Positions 42,353 through 54,636 of a stretch of DNA of 64,000 bases are shown piece after piece; the first letter of the stretch is position 1; each line of letters starts with the position of its first letter. The notes beneath the pieces were generated by a model. That model was not told where the DNA came from. It worked only from the letters and a program-made list of their open reading frames with translations, and searched no databases. The translations under genes and the position numbers were made by a program. The DNA is from a virus (Duplodnaviria; Heunggongvirae; Uroviricota; Caudoviricetes), in the IMG/VR virus record IMGVR_UViG_3300045988_146577, one strand, 5' to 3'.

Positions 42353-42874
42353 ATGGTTAAAGACATCACCTACGGCATACCGGCTGAAGTATGGCCGCGA
42401 GACTACGAACATGCTGAACGCACCTTGCTCTTCTGGCGGAGAGCTAAATTTCCTGTAAGAGTCACTCTCGAAGACGGCCAAGTGTTTTGCATGTACGTTT
42501 ATGGTCTCATGTCATCTCGTAACAAAGTTGACCTTTGTCCAACTCCATTTGACAAAGAAAATCGTATAAGGCTCCCACTTGAGCGCATTAGCACAATTGA
42601 ATCAGGCGTAATTGATGGCATTGATTACGATTTCAAAGGGAGACTAACAATACACCCTGACTATGTAGACAACCAGCCATCACGTCGTGACTTTTTTAAG
42701 ATATGTCGTCAGGCTTACCAAAACGGCAAATCTATAAGGGTCTACATGGCAGACGGTCGCGAAATTGAGGGAACGTCAGATGGCGTTGACGCCTGTCTAG
42801 TCACACTTAAGTTGGAAGACGGTAGAAAAATACTTATTTTCTTCGATTGGGTTGAACGAATCCTTCCGTTTTAG
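42353..42874 (+). CDS. hypothetical protein (173 aa)
   Basis: ORF with ATG start; no motif recognised. Confidence 0.4.
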   Translation: MVKDITYGIPAEVWPRDYEHAERTLLFWRRAKFPVRVTLEDGQVFCMYVYGLMSSRNKVDLCPTPFDKENRIRLPLERISTIESGVIDGIDYDFKGRLTIHPDYVDNQPSRRDFFKICRQAYQNGKSIRVYMADGREIEGTSDGVDACLVTLKLEDGRKILIFFDWVERILPF

Positions 42875-44472: not shown

Positions 44473-44884
44473 TTGTCTTTGACTCAAGCCAACAACATAA
44501 AAATAAGCGCCAAAATAACGCCATAGACGCGCTTTTATATCCTTACCAGTACATACCCATTACTTAGCGCATTAACGCGCTTAAATCGCGTTATATTGCG
44601 TTATGGTGTATGGTTAATCATTGGCTTTTATTCTTGCTATGTGATCCGCGTTTAATTGTCGGCGCGGATCGGCATTTTGTTTTGTTCCGTATCCGCTCGC
44701 GTATTATGTGCGCGTGATTTTTCACATAATCACACCACTTAATCACATATGTGATTACGCTACGAAAGAAATCTGGATGTCTCAGGCGACGAAAGTCATC
44801 ATAATTTTCCCCGCTCACCTGTCCGACAACCGCTGGTTGGATTCCACCAGCTTCCCGATGTTTTTTCTATATAAAGGCGAATGC

Positions 44885-45002
44885 AGCCGTTTCCCGAAAA
44901 AATCCTGGCCGTTTCCCGTCGGCTCATGAATACGTTCCTCGCCGTTTCTGAAAATTTCCCTGCGGCAGCTGGTGGCTATATAGAAAGGGCCGTTTCTGGC
45001 CC
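44885..45002. repeat. iteron-like cluster 1: four degenerate copies of GCCGTTTCC(C)GAAAA
   Basis: Copies at about 44885, 44907, 44940, 44988, spaced 22-48 bp; each contains small dyad TTTC..GAAA. Confidence 0.55.
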
Positions 45003-45011
45003 TCTTCTCAG

Positions 45012-45494
45012 TTACACGCCATCAAGGATGTGGATGCGGTTGCTTGCGTATACATTCAGCATAAAGTTAGCGCAAAACAGTTTCCATGTATCAACGCCAG
45101 CGGTATACGTAATGTTTTTGCATTTAATCGCATTGTTGGCGATCCGCATCCCCTGCGATACTGCTTCATCGTCGGAAAATTTGAACGACGATTGAGTTTT
45201 AATCCAGACAGAAATCTGCGTAGCGAACTCAATCAGCTTGGACTGGCAGAATCGCCCGGAGCGCACCGGAAAGACGAACGTTCCGAATCCAGAATTTACC
45301 ACATACGCTTTCTCAAATACCCGCGAGTAACGACGATTGCCAATGATGTCGCGTGCAATAATGCATTTTTCTTGTGCTGACAGTTCTACCGTCTCATTGT
45401 CGCGCCATGCACCAAGTACTCGTTTTTCAATGTCAGAGAACGTTACAGCGATATTGCCATGTGCGGGTGCGTTTACAGTAGCGATAAAATTCAT
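45012..45494 (-). CDS. hypothetical protein (160 aa)
   Basis: AAGGAA RBS; class-1 palindrome in leader. Confidence 0.5.
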   Translation of the reverse strand: MNFIATVNAPAHGNIAVTFSDIEKRVLGAWRDNETVELSAQEKCIIARDIIGNRRYSRVFEKAYVVNSGFGTFVFPVRSGRFCQSKLIEFATQISVWIKTQSSFKFSDDEAVSQGMRIANNAIKCKNITYTAGVDTWKLFCANFMLNVYASNRIHILDGV

Positions 45495-45515
45495 GATTAA
45501 TTCCTTATCGTAAAT

Positions 45516-45530
45516 AACAAATTGTTTTCT
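45516..45530 (-). promoter_or_regulatory. class-1 palindrome
   Basis: ACAAATTGTTTTCT followed by TGTTGGTGTTAATTATCG. Confidence 0.5.
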
Positions 45531-45580
45531 TGTTGGTGTTAATTATCGTTGTACGAATAAGGCGTCAAAGTGGAAAGTTG

Positions 45581-45669
45581 CGGTAGCCGGACGGGAACAG
45601 GTGGGTTTGTCGGTTGCCTGGAGGTAAGAGGTTGGTGTTTTTAGCCTGCGGGAAACAGGATGGTCATTT
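45581..45669. repeat. three tandem degenerate ~30-nt repeats (CGGTAGCCNGG...AGGTGGGTnTTT)
   Basis: Direct tandem units read on + strand; paralogous copy at 49207-49290. Confidence 0.5.
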
Positions 45670-45698
45670 AAGGCCACCAGCATTGGTGGCCTTACTCT

Positions 45699-45980
45699 TT
45701 AGTGGAGCAGACCGATGTCGATGGTATCCCCTGAATCATCCACACGGATCATCAGCATGGCGAAGGCGTTTAGTGGATAGCTTGCGTGCCATTCAGGGAA
45801 GCGGTCATCTCGCATGAAGTCGGCAATGTCGTAAACGCAGCCCTCAAAGTGGAAGAATCGCGTGCTTACCTGCTCGTCATATTCCACATGATCCATTTCT
45901 TGCTGTTCTGTTTCCGGCAAGTCCAGCCATGATTCAAGGAATACATTTTGTGCTTTAGGGGTAATGGTGAAATCAGTCAT
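45699..45980 (-). CDS. hypothetical small acidic protein (93 aa)
   Basis: GAGG RBS before ATG at 45980; track ORF 45699..46112 reads through the leader motif. Confidence 0.45.
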   Translation of the reverse strand: MTDFTITPKAQNVFLESWLDLPETEQQEMDHVEYDEQVSTRFFHFEGCVYDIADFMRDDRFPEWHASYPLNAFAMLMIRVDDSGDTIDIGLLH

Positions 45981-45999
45981 GAGCATATCCTCACTGCGT

Positions 46000-46015
46000 A
46001 AACATATTGTTTTCT
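46000..46015 (-). promoter_or_regulatory. class-1 palindrome
   Basis: AAACATATTGTTTTCT followed by TGTTGGTGTAATTATCG. Confidence 0.5.
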
Positions 46016-46315
46016 TGTTGGTGTAATTATCGCAGTGTAGATAAGGCATAAAAGAAGTTAATACAGGCTGAATACACAAGAAAGGTTCTGGAAGTTGATA
46101 GCCAGGTTTCAAACTAACCTTCGGTTATTAAAAGTCATTTAAGACCACCAATGCTGGTGGCCTTAATAATTATCGCCCGATTACGCTAAGGATCTTTTCC
46201 TCAACTGATTTGTTGTTGCGACTAAACTGCCTTGCGTATCTGATGACAGAAGAGGCGTTTTGCTTTCTGACCATCTCGACTCTTTCCTTCAGGCGTTTCT
46301 TGAAATCGCCCATAT

Positions 46316-46690
46316 TTACCACCAGGCGCAGAAGGTCAGTCTGTTATTGTGAAAGTCGTGGTTCTTAATCAGATCTTCCACAAGCTCTTTCAACTCCCCC
46401 ACATCATGCCAGTAACCTTCATCGTACTCCTGACTGCCGAAGAAAAAACCTTCCCGGGTAGGCAAGTACTCTTCGCAATTACTTTCGTTTATGTGCATCA
46501 AATGAGCCTTCAGAAAACAAATGTCATTCATCGTTAATTCTAAAAGCTCACAATTTTCGACTTCACCTACGTTGCGCTCCATCCACCCAACGAGCGCATT
46601 GAACTTACGGAAGTAAGCAACCTGCTTTCTGGATGCCTCGTTATTCAGATCGTTTTTAGGCTGTGTCTCGATATAGATATCAAGTCCCAT
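46316..46690 (-). CDS. hypothetical small acidic protein (124 aa)
   Basis: AAGGA RBS before ATG at 46690 (track start 46732 is GTG). Confidence 0.45.
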   Translation of the reverse strand: MGLDIYIETQPKNDLNNEASRKQVAYFRKFNALVGWMERNVGEVENCELLELTMNDICFLKAHLMHINESNCEEYLPTREGFFFGSQEYDEGYWHDVGELKELVEDLIKNHDFHNNRLTFCAWW

Positions 46691-46746
46691 GATGGTTTCC
46701 TTATTAAGTTGCTTCAGTGAAATCATTTTCACAAATCAGATAAGGC

Positions 46747-46762
46747 AGAAAACAAATTGTTA
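46747..46762 (+). promoter_or_regulatory. class-1 palindrome, inverted orientation, adjacent to terminator
   Basis: AGAAAACAAATTGTTA next to hairpin 46775-46799. Confidence 0.4.
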
Positions 46763-46774
46763 TCGGGCATAATA

Positions 46775-46799
46775 AAATGGCGCGGTTTGCGCGCCATTT
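46775..46799 (-). terminator. rho-independent terminator
   Basis: AAATGGCGCG-gtttg-CGCGCCATTT hairpin followed by U-rich tract on minus strand, after stop of 46808 gene. Confidence 0.6.
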
Positions 46800-46807
46800 A
46801 AAGAGGA

Positions 46808-47203
46808 TTAAGCGAATACGCTTTCAGGGATTAAGGTGTCGGCAGGAATGCCAGAGGTAATGCGCAGACCGTACTGGCCAATCCAGGTGGTGCTGGTGTT
46901 CAGGCTGGAGGCGAATACGGTGTTAACCATATTCATCATGGTTTCAAACACCTCTTCATCAACCTGGCGGAAGTAGTTCTCGATTTTCAGCAGCAGAGGG
47001 TCAGTTGCATCGAGAATGGACTGGTATTGAGTCGCGTACTCGCCGCCGGAGGCATCACCTTTACGCACGATCGTACTGGCCTGGACTTCGGCACCAGTTT
47101 CGGTGTTGTACGTAACAACGGTGATTTTTGCCACATTCTTACCTTCGGCGGTTTCAGAGGCATAGTAAACATCAACTGTCAGTTTTTCGCGTTTAACGGT
47201 CAT
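46808..47203 (-). CDS. hypothetical protein (131 aa)
   Basis: GGAG RBS before ATG at 47203; class-2 palindrome and terminator upstream. Confidence 0.45.
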   Translation of the reverse strand: MTVKREKLTVDVYYASETAEGKNVAKITVVTYNTETGAEVQASTIVRKGDASGGEYATQYQSILDATDPLLLKIENYFRQVDEEVFETMMNMVNTVFASSLNTSTTWIGQYGLRITSGIPADTLIPESVFA

Positions 47204-47245
47204 TTCACTCTCCGTAGTGTTTTGGTTATTTTTATATTCTATGAT

Positions 47246-47263
47246 CGTAAGTATGTACTTACA
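47246..47263 (-). promoter_or_regulatory. class-2 palindrome
   Basis: CGTAAGTATGTACTTACA just downstream of terminator hairpin 47272-47298. Confidence 0.45.
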
Positions 47264-47271
47264 ATACAAAA

Positions 47272-47298
47272 AAGCCCCGTAAGGATGGCGGGGCTGTC
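47272..47298 (-). terminator. hairpin terminator
   Basis: GCCCCG-taaggatgg-CGGGGC downstream of 47330 gene stop. Confidence 0.5.
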
Positions 47299-47329
47299 GT
47301 ACTGTCGACTAATTACCACTTGCACATTA

Positions 47330-47641
47330 TCAGGCTATTGCCATCACTGATGCTCTCTGAATTTCTTGCTGGGCCACGCGGTTAACTTCCATCAAAGCCA
47401 GTTCGAGCTGATGTTCCGGCCACATTCTTTGAAATGCCATCCAGCCTTTTCCACGCTGGCGACGAACATTCATTACATAACGAGTAAAGGTGTTTTTATC
47501 GAAAGACACCGCTGTTTCACGGAACAGACGAATAGAGGTTCCATTGGCAACGATGTCCAGCAAAGTTAATTGAGCAACCAGCGCAGGCTTCTCTTTTCTC
47601 TTCTGGTCTTTGTCCAGACCAAGAACCAATGATTTTTTCAT
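47330..47641 (-). CDS. hypothetical small basic protein (103 aa)
   Basis: GGAG RBS before ATG at 47641; class-1 palindrome in leader. Confidence 0.45.
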   Translation of the reverse strand: MKKSLVLGLDKDQKRKEKPALVAQLTLLDIVANGTSIRLFRETAVSFDKNTFTRYVMNVRRQRGKGWMAFQRMWPEHQLELALMEVNRVAQQEIQRASVMAIA

Positions 47642-47652
47642 CACAACTCCGT

Positions 47653-47668
47653 AAACAACTTGTTTTCT
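47653..47668 (-). promoter_or_regulatory. class-1 palindrome
   Basis: AAACAACTTGTTTTCT about 12 nt upstream of RBS. Confidence 0.5.
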
Positions 47669-47794
47669 CAATGGCGTAAATAATACCAGTAAGAAAACGG
47701 CTACAAAGCATATTGATCAGGTGCATGAGCGATATGCAGGTTCTTCCCTGCGGCTATAGAGAAATTAAGCCAGCAATGCTGGCTTTGGTTGGGA

Positions 47795-48124
47795 TTACTC
47801 GAATACTTCAAGAAACTCCTGAACGTCCCAATGCTGGACGAGGTGAAGATAGACCTTAGAAATCACGTCATTTTCGCTATCGCATGTGAAGTAGTACTTC
47901 TGGCTGCGGTTGTATGTGTCCACACAAAATTCGCTCATATCCATAAAGTCAGCATCTTCACCCATGTCGCAAATCATCAAAGCAGGTGCGTCATCACGAG
48001 TCATCAGCTCAAGCACCCACCGCGAATTGATCAGAGTGGAAGACCAACCTTCCAGCTCATAGAACTGGTCAAACTCTTTTTGAGTCAATTTCTTGATTTG
48101 GTTGATGTCGATATGTGCAAACAT
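47795..48124 (-). CDS. hypothetical small highly acidic protein (109 aa)
   Basis: AAGGA RBS before ATG at 48124; track start 48145 lies inside class-1 palindrome. Confidence 0.45.
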   Translation of the reverse strand: MFAHIDINQIKKLTQKEFDQFYELEGWSSTLINSRWVLELMTRDDAPALMICDMGEDADFMDMSEFCVDTYNRSQKYYFTCDSENDVISKVYLHLVQHWDVQEFLEVFE

Positions 48125-48136
48125 AAAGCAATCCTT

Positions 48137-48152
48137 AAACAACATGTTTTCT
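48137..48152 (-). promoter_or_regulatory. class-1 palindrome
   Basis: AAACAACATGTTTTCT followed by TGTTGGTGTTATTATCG. Confidence 0.5.
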
Positions 48153-48485
48153 TGTTGGTGTTATTATCGCAATAACGCACAGGCGAAAAAGGATTTTATT
48201 CCGGTGAATGTGGTTTTGGCAGTGAGTTTTCAGGTTCAGTACCGAGTACACTTTTTACATTATTCTGATTTAGTGGCCGAAGGTGGCTGGTGGGCAGAAT
48301 AATCATCTCCCCGAAAACCTACTGAAATCGATTGTGACCCGTTGGCTGTCTGGCACAATTACGCTGTAACTGGGCATTCAGAGGGAATCCAGCGGTAAGT
48401 AAGTTCGCCTGCACGTGAGCGCCTCTCTTCTTCCCGCACATTACAGGTGGGTAGCCGCAACTCTCCCTCTCGCTATACCGGTACG

Positions 48486-48617
48486 CCGCCGTTCCTGAAC
48501 CGGCATCGAGCCTTTTCCCGAAATCCACACAGGCAACTCGACCGTTTCCCTGAAAACCTCCAGCCGTTCCCCGAAGGCAACCCAGCCGTTTCTGTAGCGG
48601 GATGCAGCCTTTTCCCT
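48486..48617. repeat. iteron-like cluster 2: six degenerate copies of GCCGTT(T)CC(C)(T)GAA
   Basis: Copies at about 48486, 48510, 48540, 48562, 48584, 48605; 22-30 bp spacing. Confidence 0.55.
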
Positions 48618-48649
48618 GTATGGACCGAAGGCTGACCGTAGGGGTGTTA

Positions 48650-49600
48650 CGGGGGGGTAAAATCAGGAGTTGAATAAATACGAAAAAGGAGGCGACACCC
48701 CTCCTTCCCTCCCCACTTATACATACCTGTCTTGTTCGCTATACATGTTGTGTTTTCTTCGTGTTTTATCTGTCTCAACCTCTCTATAGGCGTTAATGCT
48801 CACTCCTTCCAGAACGTTCTATACGGCGACTATTTCTGTTGGTGAATTGGGTGTGTTGTTTTCTCTGTCGGTGTATGTAGTTTCATTAGTTTTGCGGTGG
48901 TTCTTCTATGGGGTGTTCTCGTCGTTTTGGTGATTGTTCTTCTCCGTGTATGGAGTAATGACAGGTGGGCGATTGCTTTCGTTATTGTGTTTGAGTTGTT
49001 TGTCTGGAGTGTGAAAGGCTTTTGTAGTTATTCGTGTATTGGGTAATGGCGTTTCCCGTGATTGTTATGTTTCGTGTCTTTTGGGATTGAGAGAAACCTT
49101 GCGGTTACAGGCTTCGTTGGGGTTTCAGTGATTCTGATGTTTCTTCGCTGTTTGGGTAATGGCGTGTCGTGAGTATCGCGCGTATGGAAGTTTCGAATTG
49201 CCTGTGAAAGTTAGGTTGGTTGTCCGGTAGCCTGGGAAGAAGAGGTGGGTCTTTTCGGTAGCCTGCCATAAAGAGGTTGGTTGTTTTGGGAATGGCATAT
49301 GTGTTATTTAGTTGTTTTGTTATGCCTGAAAATAAGTTGTTTATATGGTTATGTAACGCAACGGGAACGATTTTGAGCGTGTGTTTTTGTTGGTAGTGTG
49401 TTGGGTCGTCTGTGGTGAAAATTGGACGCTGTGGCGCTGTCTGCTGCGTAGAATTACGGGTATAAGCTGTGATGTGTGGAAACGTCAATTTTTTAGACCA
49501 AATCGGGTGAAAGCGTTGATGTTTCGTTGATCTGTTATTCAGTTGTTTTCTTGATTGTATAAACAACTATAACTTATTGATATTTAAGGATGTGATTGCG
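48650..49600. other. ORF-free, strongly G+T-skewed (on + strand) region with internal degenerate repeats; candidate non-coding RNA or origin-like region
   Basis: No plausible ORF on + strand; only minus-strand ORF is low-complexity; repeats TTGGGTAATGGCGT at about 49035 and 49151. Confidence 0.4.
49207..49290. repeat. tandem degenerate ~30-nt repeats, paralog of 45581-45669
   Basis: CCGGTAGCCTGGGAAGAAGAGGTGGGTCTTTT then CGGTAGCCTGCCATAAAGAGGTTGGTTGTTTT. Confidence 0.5.
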
Positions 49601-49676
49601 GGTATGGAAGGGGAGTAGTGGCGATCAACGGATTCTTATAGAAAAGAATCAAATTGTGACCGCCATTATCAATGTT

Positions 49677-50411
49677 TTACTTAGTTTTGTTTAGCAGAGA
49701 GAGAATTTCATCACTAATTTCACTCGCCTGTTTGATAGCCAATGCAGTTACCTCTTCTATGGTTGGTGACTGTTGATGCTCATGTTTGGTTTCAGTTATG
49801 ACAATGTGTTCTTCACCTGAATTTGCGCATAGTGCCGCATTGACTATAAGGTTTGAGTAAGAATTTAGCAGAGCACTGTTGATAAACGCTTTCACGGTAT
49901 TACTGTCTGCACCAAATACATCTTTTCTGACCGCTTCAGCCTCACAGCGAACCCCTGCAGCAACATCGTGAAGAACATGTATGGCCTTGGAGCTTGTTTG
50001 TTCACAGTACTCAATCATTATTGTCGAATTGTTCTGTTCAACAAATGATCTGATGCCTGACGATTCACCCATAGCATCGAAGGCAGCGTGACTCGCACTA
50101 GTAGAGATATCTTCATAGAGTTCTTCATCGCTATCTTTTTCTTCAGGTGTCGAGGTGTCTTCATCGTCGTAATAGATATTGCCTTTAATCAGTGTTTTGG
50201 ATACTTGATATAAACAATAAGAGACAAGATTTAAGCATTGGATTTTAGCTGTATTGTCCTTTGTCGCCTCGCTCTTCAGTTCTTTCGCTTCTTCAGTAAG
50301 GCTGTTGATAAGACTTTGTATTTTTTCCAACGCGTTAGGTGCACACTCCGCGTTGTCCATAAAGAATTTATAACCAGTTCCAGGGATTTCTAAACTTTTC
50401 AACTTTTTCAT
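49677..50411 (-). CDS. hypothetical protein (244 aa, AT-rich, acidic)
   Basis: ORF with ATG start; low GC relative to neighbours. Confidence 0.45.
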   Translation of the reverse strand: MKKLKSLEIPGTGYKFFMDNAECAPNALEKIQSLINSLTEEAKELKSEATKDNTAKIQCLNLVSYCLYQVSKTLIKGNIYYDDEDTSTPEEKDSDEELYEDISTSASHAAFDAMGESSGIRSFVEQNNSTIMIEYCEQTSSKAIHVLHDVAAGVRCEAEAVRKDVFGADSNTVKAFINSALLNSYSNLIVNAALCANSGEEHIVITETKHEHQQSPTIEEVTALAIKQASEISDEILSLLNKTK

Positions 50412-50456
50412 TTCTTTGATAATCCTAAAAACAAACTACCAATGCTTTAATATCTG

Positions 50457-50756
50457 TTACCAGTTCCAGCACTCAAGCCCTTCAACGACCGGTGCACCAC
50501 AATCAAAATGTACAGAGTCAAAGCCTACATCAAGTACTTTCTGAATGTTAGCAATCGCGCCTTCGGATATACCATATCGACGCAAGTCGTCTTTCCAGAC
50601 ATCATCCTGTAACCCGGCGTGGACAATACAACCGCCATCAATTTGTGAAACCCAATCCAGCTCATTGCTTGCGATCATGAATCGGCGAGCATCTTCCTCT
50701 GATGTATGAGATGAGCTGATCAATGCCACCTGGTAGGCTTGGGTAATGTTCAACAT
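50457..50756 (-). CDS. hypothetical small acidic protein (99 aa)
   Basis: GGAG RBS 9 nt before ATG at 50756; class-1 palindrome immediately upstream. Confidence 0.45.
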   Translation of the reverse strand: MLNITQAYQVALISSSHTSEEDARRFMIASNELDWVSQIDGGCIVHAGLQDDVWKDDLRRYGISEGAIANIQKVLDVGFDSVHFDCGAPVVEGLECWNW

Positions 50757-50769
50757 TTCAACCACTCCA

Positions 50770-50785
50770 AAACAAGTTGTTTTCT
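50770..50785 (-). promoter_or_regulatory. class-1 palindrome
   Basis: AAACAAGTTGTTTTCT immediately upstream of RBS of 50457 gene. Confidence 0.5.
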
Positions 50786-50817
50786 TATGTGGTTTATTAT
50801 CTCCATCAACAAAAGGC

Positions 50818-50834
50818 AGAAAACAAATTGTTTT
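50818..50834 (+). promoter_or_regulatory. class-1 palindrome, inverted orientation, about 40 nt from metG terminator
   Basis: AGAAAACAAATTGTTTT. Confidence 0.4.
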
Positions 50835-50917: not shown

Positions 50918-52951
50918 TTACTTAACCTGGTGGCCAGGTTTAGCACCAGCATCCGGGCTTAACAGGAAGATATCTTTCCCACCGGGGCCAGCAGCCATCA
51001 CCATACCTTCGGAGATACCGAAGCGCATTTTACGCGGAGCCAGGTTAGCCACCATAATGGTGTGACGACCAATCAGTGCCTGTGGGTCTGGATAAGCAGA
51101 ACGGATGCCTGAGAAGACATTGCGTTTTTCACCACCTAGATCCAGCGTCAGACGCAGCAGTTTGTCAGAGCCTTCAACAAACTCCGCGTTTTCAATCAGC
51201 GCCACGCGCAGGTCAACTTTGGCGAAGTCATCAAAGGTGATGGTTTCCTGAATCGGATCGTCTGCCAGCGGGCCAGTAACTGGCGCGGCAGTGGCTTTCA
51301 CTTCTTCTTTAGAGGCTTCCACCAGTGCTTCAACCTGCTTCATGTCGATGCGGTTATACAGTGCTTTGAACGGATTAACTTTGTGCGCCAGCAGCGGTTG
51401 CTGGATGCCATCCCAGGTCAGTTCCGTATTGAGGAATGCTTCTGCACGCTCGGTCAGTTTCGGCAGTACCGGCTTCAGGTAAGTCATCAGCACGCGGAAC
51501 AGGTTGATGCCCATTGAGCAAATTGCCTGCAGGTCGGCATCGCGGCCTTCCTGTTTCGCCACCACCCACGGAGCCTGTTCATCGACATAGCGGTTAGCCA
51601 GGTCAGCCAATGCCATGATTTCACGGATAGCTTTACCAAATTCACGGCTTTCCCATGCTTCGCCAATCACTTCAGCGGCATCAGTAAAGGTTTTGTACAG
51701 TTGCGGGTCAGCCAGTTCGCTTGCCAGCACGCCGTCAAAACGCTTGTTGATAAAGCCTGCATTACGAGAGGCCAGGTTAACCACTTTGTTCACGATATCG
51801 GCATTCACGCGCTGAACGAAATCCTCCAGGTTGAGATCGATATCATCAATGCGCGAAGAGAGTTTCGCAGTGTAGTAGTAACGCAGGCTGTCAGCGTCAA
51901 AATGATTCAGCCAGGTGCTGGCTTTAATAAAGGTGCCGCGAGACTTGGACATCTTTGCGCCGTTCACCGTCACATAGCCATGAACAAACAGGTTGGTCGG
52001 CTTGCGGAAGTTGCTGCCTTCCAGCATGGCAGGCCAGAACAGGCTGTGGAAGTAAACAATATCTTTACCGATGAAGTGGTACAGCTCGGCGGTGGAGTCT
52101 TTCTTCCAGTATTCATCGAAGCTTACGCTGTCGCCGCGCTTGTCGCACAGATTCTTGAAAGAACCCATGTAGCCAATCGGTGCGTCCAGCCAGACGTAGA
52201 AATATTTGCCCGGCGCGTTCGGAATTTCAAAACCGAAGTAAGGCGCATCGCGGGAGATATCCCACTGTTGCAGGCCGGATTCAAACCATTCCTGCATTTT
52301 GTTCGCCACCTGCTCCTGCAACGCGCCGCTGCGGGTCCATGCCTGCAACATTTCGCTGAAAGAAGGCAGATCAAAGAAGAAGTGTTCGGAATCACGCATT
52401 ACCGGGGTAGCGCCAGAAACCACCGATTTCGGCTCGATCAATTCAGTCGGGCTATATGTTGCGCCGCAGACTTCACAGTTATCGCCGTATTGATCTGGCG
52501 CTTTACATTTCGGGCAGGTGCCTTTCACAAAACGATCCGGCAGGAACATGCCTTTTTCCGGGTCGTACAACTGAGAGATAGTGCGGTTTTTAATAAAACC
52601 GTTCTCTTTCAGGCGAGTATAGATAAGCTCAGACAGCTGGCGGTTCTCTTCGCTGTGCGTCGAGTGATAGTTGTCATAGCTGATGTTAAAGCCTGCGAAA
52701 TCAGTCTGGTGTTCCTGACTCATTTCGCCAATCATCTGCTCCGGAGTGATACCAAGCTGCTGAGCTTTCAGCATGATCGGCGTACCGTGGGCATCGTCGG
52801 CACAGATGAAATTAACCTCGTGGCCGCGCATTCGCTGGTAACGAACCCAGACATCAGCCTGGATGTGCTCCAGCATATGGCCGAGGTGGATTGAGCCGTT
52901 AGCGTACGGCAGCGCGCACGTCACCAGAATTTTCTTCGCGACTTGGGTCAT
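50918..52951 (-). CDS. metG: methionyl-tRNA synthetase
   Basis: 677 aa; class I HIGH (GSIHLGH) and KMSKS motifs; Zn knuckle CPKC...CEVC; C-terminal tRNA-binding domain; start at MTQVAKK (track ORF extends 43 codons upstream). Confidence 0.95.
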
Positions 52952-53108
52952 AGTAGGCATTACTTCTTTGTAGTGAAAAGGGGCTTGATAGTAACAAAAT
53001 GGCCTTATGTCTGCCATGTGATAACAGCATTTCTCATAAATGATTAAATGTCGTAGCTGGAGTACACTACAAGGCGACAATTGCGCAAATTAAAATAAAG
53101 GAGACGGG

Positions 53109-54209
53109 ATGAGCGAGTCCAAATCGCCGGATGCCCTGAGAGCAATGGTAGCCGGTACGCTGGCTAATTTTCAGCACCCAACCCTGAAACACAACCTGAC
53201 TACGCTTAAAGCGTTACACCATGTTGCGTTGATGGATGACACACTGCATGTCGAACTAATCATGCCTTTCGTGTGGAATAAGCCTTTTGAAGACCTGAAA
53301 GAGCAATGTAGTGGTGATCTGCTCCGTATCACTGGCGCAAAGGCTATTGACTGGAAGCTGTCGTACAACATTGCCACGCTTAAGCGCGTCAAAAACCAAC
53401 CAGGCATTAATGGCGTTAAGAACATTATCGCCGTCAGCTCAGGCAAGGGCGGCGTGGGTAAATCCTCCACGGCGGTAAACCTGGCACTGGCGTTGGCTGC
53501 TGAAGGTGCGAAAGTTGGTATTTTGGATGCCGATATCTATGGTCCATCAATTCCAACCATGCTGGGCGCGGAAAACCAACGTCCAACCTCACCTGACGGT
53601 ACTCACATGGCACCTATCATGTCTCATGGCCTGGCAACCAACTCTATTGGTTATCTGGTCACCGACGACAATGCAATGGTGTGGCGTGGACCGATGGCCA
53701 GCAAGGCGCTGATGCAGATGTTGCAGGAAACTCTATGGCCTGATCTGGACTATCTCGTTCTCGATATGCCGCCGGGCACTGGTGATATTCAGTTGACGCT
53801 GGCGCAGAACATTCCTGTAACTGGTGCGGTTGTGGTAACTACGCCGCAAGACATCGCGCTGATCGATGCGAAGAAAGGCATTGTGATGTTCGAAAAAGTC
53901 GAAGTGCCGGTACTGGGTATCGTCGAAAACATGAGTGTGCATATTTGCAGTAACTGCGGTCATCACGAGCCAATTTTTGGCACCGGTGGCGCACAGAAAC
54001 TGGCCGAGAAATACAACACGCAGTTGTTAGGCCAAATGCCTCTTCATATCTCTCTTCGTGAAGATCTGGATAACGGAACACCAACCGTTATTAGTCGTCC
54101 AGATAGTGAATTTACGGCTATTTATCGTGACCTCGCAGATCGCGTTGCTGCCCAAATGTATTGGCAAGGTGAAGTAATACCTGGCGAAATCGCATTCCGC
54201 GCAGTGTGA
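53109..54209 (+). CDS. apbC: Fe-S cluster carrier ATPase ApbC/Mrp
   Basis: Deviant Walker A SGKGGVGKSS, CxxC (CSNCGHH); AAGGAG RBS; divergent from metG as in enterobacterial chromosomes. Confidence 0.9.
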   Translation: MSESKSPDALRAMVAGTLANFQHPTLKHNLTTLKALHHVALMDDTLHVELIMPFVWNKPFEDLKEQCSGDLLRITGAKAIDWKLSYNIATLKRVKNQPGINGVKNIIAVSSGKGGVGKSSTAVNLALALAAEGAKVGILDADIYGPSIPTMLGAENQRPTSPDGTHMAPIMSHGLATNSIGYLVTDDNAMVWRGPMASKALMQMLQETLWPDLDYLVLDMPPGTGDIQLTLAQNIPVTGAVVVTTPQDIALIDAKKGIVMFEKVEVPVLGIVENMSVHICSNCGHHEPIFGTGGAQKLAEKYNTQLLGQMPLHISLREDLDNGTPTVISRPDSEFTAIYRDLADRVAAQMYWQGEVIPGEIAFRAV

Positions 54210-54215
54210 TAAAAA

Positions 54216-54234
54216 GGTGGTGCATTGCACCACC
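54216..54234 (-). terminator. hairpin terminator (for HumD-like gene; overlaps apbC 3-prime end)
   Basis: GGTGGTGCA-t-TGCACCACC hairpin followed by UUUUUAUCA on minus strand. Confidence 0.5.
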
Positions 54235-54246
54235 TAAACAGTTCTC

Positions 54247-54636
54247 CTACATCACAGGACAATCATCAAACTCGCCACTTCTTGCGTCGTTGATAATGTG
54301 AGTGATCACACCAAACACGGCATTGCTGCCCGTGCATCCATCGTCATCCTTTGGCAATGCTTCCTTCTTACCGGTTCTTAAATCCTCCAGATGCTGACGT
54401 GGGTACTTCCGGTATCTTTTTACGCGATATTCCCCATCCAGAGCGCATACAAGCAGAGAACCATCAACCGGGGTAAGTGAGGAATCGACCACCAGCAATG
54501 CACCCTGTAATATTCCCTCACGATGATGGCTGTCAGCCGCTCTCATGAAGTAGGTCGCTGAAGGATGTCTAATTATCTGCTGATCAAGAGAAATACGGCT
54601 CTCAGCATAATCCGCCGCAGGAGAAGGGAAGCCCAT
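54247..54636 (-). CDS. UmuD'-like S24 peptidase-domain protein (HumD-like, lacks N-terminal cleavable arm)
   Basis: Starts MGFPSPAADY, matching UmuD just after its autocleavage site; Ser (DSHH) and Lys (RVKRYRK) catalytic dyad positions conserved; LexA box upstream. Confidence 0.8.
   Translation of the reverse strand: MGFPSPAADYAESRISLDQQIIRHPSATYFMRAADSHHREGILQGALLVVDSSLTPVDGSLLVCALDGEYRVKRYRKYPRQHLEDLRTGKKEALPKDDDGCTGSNAVFGVITHIINDARSGEFDDCPVM

Follow-up and report, generated by a model that had tools for sequence, protein, structure and literature searches.

A probable co-regulated array of small single-gene cassettes in a phage-plasmid of the SSU5/pHCM2 supergroup

A total of eight small minus-strand genes, here numbered g1 to g8, were examined in a 64,000-nt stretch of DNA (hereafter the window) from the tailed-phage record IMGVR_UViG_3300045988_146577, in which they occupy positions 44880-50800. 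This span matches Escherichia phage Cyrano (OV696614; the re-annotated pLF82 of the Escherichia coli strain LF82, which is adherent-invasive (AIEC)) over its full length with 98.5% identity, and also matches non-mobilizable E. coli plasmids of ~108 kb. Among complete E. coli genomes, all 260 matches to the span lie on plasmids and none on a chromosome. Cyrano/pLF82 is a member of the SSU5/pHCM2 phage-plasmid supergroup and has been described as a ciprofloxacin-inducible siphovirus present at ~5.5 copies per cell (PMC9928086). Genes g1 to g8 correspond to CYRAN_111 to CYRAN_101 of this element; all are labelled 'hypothetical' in both the curated Cyrano annotation and PGAP, and a text search with the accession numbers of the eight proteins found no paper.

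The eight open reading frames (ORFs) listed by a first-pass annotation of the window were all confirmed, each with an ATG start, a Shine-Dalgarno sequence and no internal stop codon. Read in the direction of transcription, they begin with g8 (50457-50756; 99 aa, isoelectric point (pI) 4.32) and g7 (49677-50411; 244 aa, pI 4.69), and continue beyond a long non-coding element with g6 (47795-48124; 109 aa, pI 4.29), g5 (47330-47641; 103 aa, pI 10.47), g4 (46808-47203; 131 aa, pI 4.48), g3 (46316-46690; 124 aa, pI 4.69), g2 (45699-45980; 93 aa, pI 4.13) and g1 (45012-45494; 160 aa, pI 9.16). A basic 47-aa ORF on the same strand (CYRAN_109; 46170-46313), which is not called by PGAP, starts 3 nt past the g3 stop codon. 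The proteins had been described as mostly acidic, which holds for the six with a pI of 4.13-4.69; g1 and g5 are basic. This represents an enrichment over the other small ORFs of the window, only 7 of 40 of which have a pI <4.8 (Fisher p=0.003). Net charges, which reflect bulk charge only, are -15 for g2, -14 for g6, -12 for g3 and -10 for g8.

Hairpins of -11 to -21 kcal/mol follow g1, g2, g3 with its 47-aa ORF, g4, g5, g6 and g7. The 3' ends of g4 (46775-46799), g5 (within 47261-47305) and g6 (47767-47785) are canonical terminators comprising a hairpin and a U-tract, while g1 is followed by a hairpin with a moderate U tail (44985-45004) and g7 by a strong hairpin with no U-tract. No hairpin was found at the 3' end of g8, where the gap to g7 is only 45 nt. 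Hairpins of the GGCCACC type had been thought to bracket each gene; two are present, both on the minus strand, at 46139-46166 (after g3 and the 47-aa ORF, forming the upstream boundary of the g2 cassette) and 45669-45694 (its downstream boundary), and the remaining 3' ends are of other types.

Alignment of the upstream regions identified a common module of ~55-75 nt with the layout TTnTGCCTTatc...GATAAT-taACACCAACAAG-AAAACAAnTTGTTTa-..GGAG..ATG. A TTnTGC...N16-18...GATAAT arrangement lies upstream of g1, g2, g3, g5, g6 and g8, and TTGTAA-17-TAGAAT (47236-47264) upstream of g4; both are predicted sigma70-like promoters. The same six genes carry a class-1 palindrome, the odd palindrome AGAAAACAA-N-TTGTTT with the extended form (AG)AAAACAA-N-TTGTTT(TCT) of 15-19 bp, in a fixed position between the GATAAT -10 box and the Shine-Dalgarno sequence (g1, 45515-45527; g2, 46000-46012; g3, 46750-46762; g5, 47653-47665; g6, 48137-48149). 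The predicted promoter region of g8 (50770-50833) contains two copies flanking GATAAT, one at 50770-50782 and the other at 50821-50833, while g4 and g7 have none, so that the earlier description of one leader palindrome per gene applies to six of the eight. The palindrome centre lies ~21 nt past GATAAT, that is, at around +14 of the predicted transcript (including the 50770-50782 copy of g8), which is a classic place for a repressor that blocks RNA polymerase. A -35-like TTCTGC is overlapped by the g3 site, by the more distal of the g8 copies and, beyond the region, by two further sites, and an orphan copy is present in non-coding DNA at 49330-49342.

Palindromes of this class are over-represented in the window (17 sites versus about 1-2 expected), and none of 100 shuffles equalled that count. 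A stable RNA hairpin in the leader was ruled out, as shuffled sequences fold just as well as the predicted leaders (z -0.2 to +0.8), which points to a putative protein-binding site rather than an RNA structure. An identically spaced copy of the module precedes the SSU5 orthologues despite a protein identity of only ~66%, and the module is therefore under selection. In the reconstructed Cyrano genome (107 kb) there are 18 palindrome sites, all 25-45 nt upstream of start codons, eight of which fall in the span. The others precede the small terminase gene terS (two sites), parA, the replicative helicase gene, a cobT-like gene, CYRAN_58, the gene for the ribonucleotide reductase β subunit (RNR-β), CYRAN_85, CYRAN_87 and CYRAN_93. 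The site thus recurs before many separate operons, apparently positioned to block RNA polymerase, and its treatment as a feature of an island was a misreading. The span is dense in palindromes because nearly every gene in it is a separate transcription unit.

Expression in the plasmid-prophage state was taken from published RNA-seq of the LF82 lysogen (S1 table of PMC9928086), for which background is 9.8. Most of the palindrome-headed genes are at or near this level, including terS (7), g8 (7.5), g2 (6.7), g3 (5.7), g5 (12), g6 (13) and CYRAN_85, CYRAN_87 and CYRAN_93 (6-7), and the palindrome-headed helicase gene reaches 21 (PMC9928086). Values for the two genes without a palindrome are 57 for g7 (CYRAN_102; ~6x background) and 17 for g4 (PMC9928086). 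These data fit a negative control element that holds units off in the plasmid state. The 47-aa ORF is expressed at 58 (~6x background) while g3 is at background (PMC9928086), implying an internal promoter, a small RNA or an antisense transcript ending at the hairpin 46139-46166. Misson et al. name CYRAN_102 and CYRAN_109 as morons, and g7 and the 47-aa ORF do act like true morons in being lysogen-expressed.

Conservation was assessed by tblastn and synteny in eight relatives representing six genera, namely Salmonella (SSU5 and pHCM2), Klebsiella, Enterobacter, Citrobacter, E. fergusonii and E. coli elements. Genes g1 (68-99% identity) and g5 (56-76%) were found in all eight; g2 (80-100%, the most conserved gene), g4 and g8 (40-47%) in seven; g3 in three; g6 in one; and g7, a lineage-restricted cargo gene, in none. 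The name accessory island is therefore inappropriate for a set in which five of eight genes are core to the supergroup and only g3, g6 and g7 are variable. Between SSU5 and the Enterobacter plasmid, synonymous divergence (dS) is 0.10-0.17 for g1, g2 and g5 and 1.08 for g4. The ratio of nonsynonymous to synonymous divergence (dN/dS) is ~0.12 for g1, g2 and g5 and 0.2-0.5 for the fast-evolving g4; together with confident structure models, ratios of 0.12-0.27 indicate that g1, g2, g4 and g5 are real, constrained proteins.

Close relatives differ from the window by loss or replacement of whole cassettes with breakpoints in the regulatory modules, and the small genes are individually promoted and terminated, so the modular organisation proposed in the first-pass annotation was well founded. 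In the E. fergusonii plasmid (L008), g1, g3 and g6 retain 93-100% DNA identity, while the g2 cassette is absent, with the gap lying exactly between the pair of GGCCACC hairpins, each a 39-nt repeat of the other. The g5-g4 segment of the same plasmid has been replaced (55-78% identity), with breakpoints in the g5 promoter/palindrome module (~47650-47710) and between the g4 terminator and the g3 palindrome (~46750-46810). In the E. coli plasmid pLAO4 (L007), g6 has been replaced and the g4 orthologue is interrupted by the insertion sequence IS1 (L007 7203-7900), which shows that g4 is dispensable for maintenance of this natural plasmid. The Chi sequence (GCTGGTGG) occurs 14 times in the window versus 1.6 expected, with five copies within 44.8-48.3 kb (44844, 44968, 45674, 46153 and 48286). 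Two of these sit inside the g2-bounding hairpins in opposite orientations (46153 on the plus strand, 45674 on the minus strand), and two, at 44844 (-) and 44968 (+), flank a cluster of iteron-like repeats beyond g1. Overall, the g1-g8 finding was largely right and reflects real, non-random structure, with an original description that was over-generalised.

The span also contains 1.55 kb of conserved non-coding DNA between g7 and g6 (48125-49676), passed over in the first-pass annotation. Its main part is a conserved non-coding element (48470-49676, minus strand), with the orphan palindrome mentioned above and a terminator-like hairpin at 48683-48709. The first ~900 nt of the element are A/C-rich and G-poor on the gene-sense strand (G 7-16%). 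It aligns with SSU5 over 1.3 kb (67% identity, E 3e-97) and occurs in 836 plasmid records, which span at least six genera and in nearly all cases have no annotated gene there. A coding function for the gap (CYRAN_103/104 or a 153-aa ORF) was ruled out, based on the lack of 3-nt periodicity and of an ORF conserved between relatives (the open frames differ); long open frames arise there because G-poor sequence has few stop codons. PGAP calls no gene between g7 and g6. No known RNA genes or tRNAs were found in the non-coding stretches, whether Rfam gathering thresholds or a cut-off of E≤1 was applied. The gap was also rejected as a DnaA-type origin: DnaA boxes and an AT-rich unwinding element are lacking, and GATC does not occur in 1 kb.

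At the g6-proximal end of the element lies an iteron-like array (48480-48620, minus strand) of 5-6 copies of GGGAAA(A/C)GGCTG with a spacing of 21-22 bp (one of 31). Across nine sequences from six genera the repeat cores are conserved and the spacers drift, as in iterons or centromere-like sites. A second iteron-like cluster, made up of copies of this repeat (GGGAAACGGC) in the same orientation (44884-44990, minus strand) is the one flanked by Chi sites; it lies past g1, and the two clusters consequently bracket the g6-g1 block. Assignment of the iterons to RepA was ruled out, since no copies occur near repA. A further repeat family, CAGGCTACCG...ACCnACCT with a period of ~30 nt, has two copies between g2 and g1 (45607-45670) and two in the non-coding element (49221-49287), the latter among its most conserved blocks.

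The truly variable zone of the region is upstream of the non-coding element, where g8 orthologues are always located, beside DUF1380 genes, in the relatives that have g8. A cargo hot spot lies directly upstream of a conserved, imperfect 45-nt hairpin (49620-49664, minus strand; dG -16.9, no U-tract) that marks the boundary between variable cargo and the element (loci L007-L012, 1-4500). Cargo at this site includes a type I restriction-modification system with a DUF262 protein (Klebsiella), IS3, an LprI lysozyme inhibitor, YdfZ, DUF1380 and a GIY-YIG nuclease in relatives, and metG, apbC, g8 and g7 in the window.

Searches of Pfam, NCBIfam, PADLOC and PHROGs returned no anti-defence, defence, enzyme or other functional match for g1-g8. 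The only curated match is the C-terminal DUF5983 domain of g8 (PF19419; residues 12-99, 42.8 bits versus a gathering cut-off of 27, E 6.9e-11), and the other proteins fall in PHROGs of no known function. No PDB chain matched any of the eight proteins by sequence (E≤10), profile searches with g1, g2, g4 and g5 matched no solved structure, and assignments to replication or morphogenesis by homology or structure, which had been named as grounds for refuting the anti-defence reading, were looked for and not found. AlphaFold models of g2 (predicted local distance difference test score (pLDDT) 93) and g4 (pLDDT 85) have no apparent solved structural relative, including DNA mimics and anti-defence proteins, and model comparison accordingly gives no support for DNA mimicry by either.

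At least 198 members, grouping into about 75 clusters at 50% identity, make up the g2 family, which shows a clear motif pattern and includes Yersinia pestis plasmid genes. Its distant relatives are found in small-ORF arrays of unrelated phage contigs, near genes for Dam/N6-methyltransferase, RdgC, HNH and ThyA. The label 'ABC transporter' that g2 bears in many records is a propagated misannotation; the protein is soluble, acidic and only 93 aa long, with no Pfam match. The g4 family comprises at least 161 uncharacterised proteins from Enterobacterales prophages and phage-plasmids. Homologues in phiKO2, a Klebsiella phage and a Proteus phage lie on either flank of the lysis genes, in the interval to Q or in that to the terminase, which are classic moron positions. 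A CARF/Csm6-like identity for g4 was rejected, the weak matches (E 0.02-0.05) being contradicted by the structure model.

Adjoining the array is a plus-strand gene of the FljA family (repressor of phase-1 flagellin; 42353-42874), which matches PF03614 over its full length (E 3.5e-80) and is conserved in SSU5, in pJN2-26 and in Klebsiella relatives. The FljA-like protein is one candidate binder of the palindrome in mRNA leaders, and might act either in host flagellin silencing or on phage mRNA leaders. Further candidate binders of the palindrome are the helix-turn-helix (HTH) repressor CYRAN_45 and the basic proteins g5 and g1.

Based on these results, we consider it probable that g1-g8 form a co-regulated small-gene array of an SSU5/pLF82-type phage-plasmid, built from autonomous single-gene cassettes with a modularity like that of the promoter-early stem-loop (PeSL) cassettes of T4-like phages. 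Of this picture, the layout of the units and its conservation, the genome-wide spread of the sites, the mosaic breakpoints and the lysogen silence are directly shown. In each unit, a sigma70-type promoter (TTnTGC...GATAAT) and the palindrome would be followed by a Shine-Dalgarno sequence, a small ORF and a 3' hairpin. A regulator encoded by the element would bind the palindrome and control a genome-wide regulon of 18 sites, to which the operons of small terminase, parA, RNR-β and the replication helicase, among others, would also belong. This regulator would hold most units off in the plasmid-prophage state, and they would then presumably be expressed after infection or induction; we infer a lytic or establishment-phase switch-on from the operator-like site and the lysogen silence. 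Promoter/operator modules and Chi hairpins probably double as homology patches, at which recombination would delete, insert or swap whole cassettes between relatives. The most likely role of the products, with the exceptions of g7 and the 47-aa ORF, is that of small host-directed accessory or 'takeover' factors of the early lytic phase, given their small size, acidity, phage-early-region context, the tolerated loss of g2 and g4, and the absence of a replication or structural signature.

Several observations weigh against this interpretation. Core status in the family, as held by five of the genes (g1, g2, g4, g5 and g8), is not typical of ORFan cassettes. A generic promoter scan identified 12 promoter-like sites in the region compared to 17.1 in shuffled sequences, and we infer the promoter and operator roles from sequence logic and one lysogen data set. 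Neither CYRAN_45 nor the FljA-like gene has a palindrome in its promoter region. Two palindrome-headed genes are expressed in the lysogen, parA at 50 (5x background) and g1 at 25 (2.6x; PMC9928086).

The emphasis of the first-pass annotation was on an anti-defence island, in which some of the acidic proteins would be DNA mimics or inhibitors of restriction, CRISPR, BREX or similar systems. The enrichment in acidic proteins, headed by the charge of -15 over 93 aa in g2, is what such an island would be expected to show, as are the cassette organisation and lysogen silence. The fast evolution and allele swapping of g4 resemble those of an arms-race protein, and the g2 family occurs in early-type phage regions beside DNA methyltransferases. 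The DUF1380 and DUF5983 families are also found on mobile-element islands beside antirestriction-type genes and in plasmid leading regions. Furthermore, a DefenseFinder survey of SSU5-group elements found only Rad, and this near lack of recognised anti-defence genes makes unrecognised ones plausible (bioRxiv 10.1101/2025.09.12.675607). Against these points, the array proteins match no known anti-defence or defence family in sequence, ArdA, Ocr, KlcA/ArdB, Acr, Tad, Gad and Rad included, the CARF/Csm6 pointers for g4 did not survive modelling, g1 and g5 are basic, and the 80-100% conservation of g2 with a dN/dS of 0.12 would be more in keeping with a host target that is conserved than with a defence system that varies. 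The anti-defence reading is thus neither supported nor refuted, and we regard it as a tentative possibility. It is in our view unlikely that the proteins are instead ordinary, unrecognised parts of the life cycle, such as replication or recombination accessories, lysis-lysogeny regulators or partition adaptors, with no host-directed role. The core status of g1, g2, g4, g5 and g8 would be expected of such parts, the control site is common to helicase, RNR, parA and terS genes, and the basic g1 and g5 could bind nucleic acid. The array is moreover bracketed by iteron-like repeats, adjoins the conserved non-coding element and has a concentration of Chi sites. No homology or fold match, however, ties any of the proteins to one with a replication, recombination, regulatory or structural role; members of the g2 and g4 families are found in unrelated phages whose replication systems differ, and natural plasmids tolerate IS1 in g4 as well as the loss of g2.

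Strict morons, that is, lysogenic-conversion or superinfection-exclusion genes expressed from the resident plasmid-prophage to the benefit of the host, would equally have a promoter and terminator for each gene. Expression of g7 and the 47-aa ORF (both listed by Misson et al.) at ~6x and of g1 at ~2.6x background agrees with this, as do the moron sites of g4 relatives in lambdoid and N15-like phages and the reduction of foreign DNA uptake and phage burst by a Klebsiella SSU5-like plasmid (PMC8969562). As g2, g3, g5, g6 and g8 are at or near lysogen background, and as their site is common to lytic genes such as terS, we consider this explanation quite unlikely for the array. A separate question is the level at which the regulon would act. 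The palindrome could be an RNA operator, with the FljA-family protein binding mRNA 5' leaders and blocking translation, so that control would be post-transcriptional. The full-length gene lies beside the array and is conserved in the supergroup, binding of FljA to an operator in the leader of fliC mRNA, with a block of translation, has been reported (PMC4122451), and most palindrome sites fall within the predicted 5' untranslated region, 4-10 nt from the Shine-Dalgarno sequence. The Salmonella fliC leader also contains the 8-mer CAAGTTGT, identical to the palindrome core, 7 nt upstream of GATAAGGA, in a Shine-Dalgarno context like that of g1; this likeness is a suggestive but weak pointer to an FljA-like binder, the 8-mer match in a 60-nt leader having a p of about 0.004. 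In contrast, four palindrome sites overlap a -35 box or sit upstream of the promoter and so would lie outside the leader, perfect dyad symmetry suggests a dimeric DNA-binding protein, and mRNA rather than just protein is low in the lysogen, though FljA also destabilises mRNA. The FljA-like protein may moreover merely repress host flagellin, and an RNA operator appears doubtful. A joint reading, which we consider very unlikely in its entirety, would combine these elements into a novel circuit. In this circuit, AGAAAACAA-N-TTGTTT in ~18 operon leaders would be recognised by a factor that the element encodes, perhaps the RNA-binding protein of the FljA family with an effect on translation, coupling novel-fold host-directed proteins (the g2 and g4 families, with at least one new anti-defence or takeover factor) to the lytic programme. 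The G-poor 1.2-kb element and its iterons would then be a new cis-acting site, for example an R-loop-type lytic origin for the UvsW/UvsY/gp32/RecA machinery of the element.

The co-regulated cassette array that we favour can be compared with several known systems. PeSL cassettes have been described from T4-like phages, specifically their hyperplastic regions (Arbiol et al. 2010, PMC2839356; Comeau et al. 2014, PMC4122927), in which sigma70-like promoters and stem-loop motifs flank ORFans and serve as recombination joints (PMC2839356). The array is similar in that unknown small ORFs are flanked by a conserved sigma70-like promoter (here predicted) and a stem-loop motif, and in that close relatives differ by single-cassette deletion, insertion or replacement with crossovers in the motifs. 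The presence of the g2 cassette in the window versus a single hairpin in L008 mirrors RB49 ORF192 versus phi1; among the published PeSL cases is an ORF that lies between two PeSLs in one phage and gives way to just one in the related phage (PMC2839356). PeSLs reside in virulent T4-like myoviruses, and the array in a phage-plasmid that is a temperate siphovirus. The motif of the array is unrelated in sequence and contains a putative palindromic operator common to core operons, two of the stem-loops carry Chi, and most cassettes are family-conserved, whereas PeSL-flanked genes are non-essential ORFans. The array thus works like PeSLs but is not a member of the PeSL class. Lambdoid morons share with it the autonomous transcription units, the position of g4 homologues and the lysogen expression of g7 and the 47-aa ORF, and differ in that most of the array genes are lysogen-silent with a repressor-type site and form a conserved tandem array rather than scattered insertions.

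In the phage-plasmid P1, C1 operators are dispersed over the genome, each controlling a separate operon. The palindrome resembles these as one short site occurring ~18 times over a ~100-kb phage-plasmid before replication, partition, packaging and accessory operons. The P1 C1 operator is an asymmetric 17-mer, whereas the site described here is a perfect odd palindrome of unrelated sequence. The anti-restriction and DNA-mimic proteins Ocr, ArdA and KlcA/ArdB resemble the array proteins as small acidic products, probably early and clustered on a mobile element, but the array proteins have no sequence or fold similarity to them. Leading-region anti-defence islands of plasmids differ in location, since a non-conjugative element such as this one lacks a leading region.

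Phage-plasmids of the SSU5/pHCM2/pLF82 type are common in E. coli, Shigella, Salmonella Typhi, Klebsiella and Y. pestis, where pMT1 has genes in common with them, and carry resistance genes. They represent a clinically widespread, little-studied group, and no description of their gene regulation was found in the searchable literature. With a candidate master control site in 18 copies, the lysis/lysogeny circuitry becomes open to direct testing. Exchange of cassettes at Chi hairpins and promoter/operator modules would explain how small genes are gained, lost and swapped, and would extend the PeSL idea beyond T4-like phages. The g2 (at least 198 members) and g4 (at least 161) families, with folds predicted to be novel, are widespread and confidently modelled targets for host-takeover and anti-defence screens. 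If one of these proteins were indeed an anti-defence factor, it would help to explain why so few are known in the SSU5 group. The conserved non-coding element and its iterons are recorded in hardly any annotation.

Upstream of g8 the window continues with metG, encoding a full-length methionyl-tRNA synthetase (50918-53080, minus strand), and apbC, encoding an ApbC/MinD-like ATPase (about 53240-54340, plus strand). A chromosomal island beside metG was ruled out; both genes belong to the cargo that the phage-plasmid carries, as the 260 E. coli matches to the span are without exception plasmid-borne. Adjoining this cargo is the gene of an S24 peptidase-only protein (54247-54636), which is among the top-expressed Cyrano genes in the lysogen (148 versus a background of 9.8).

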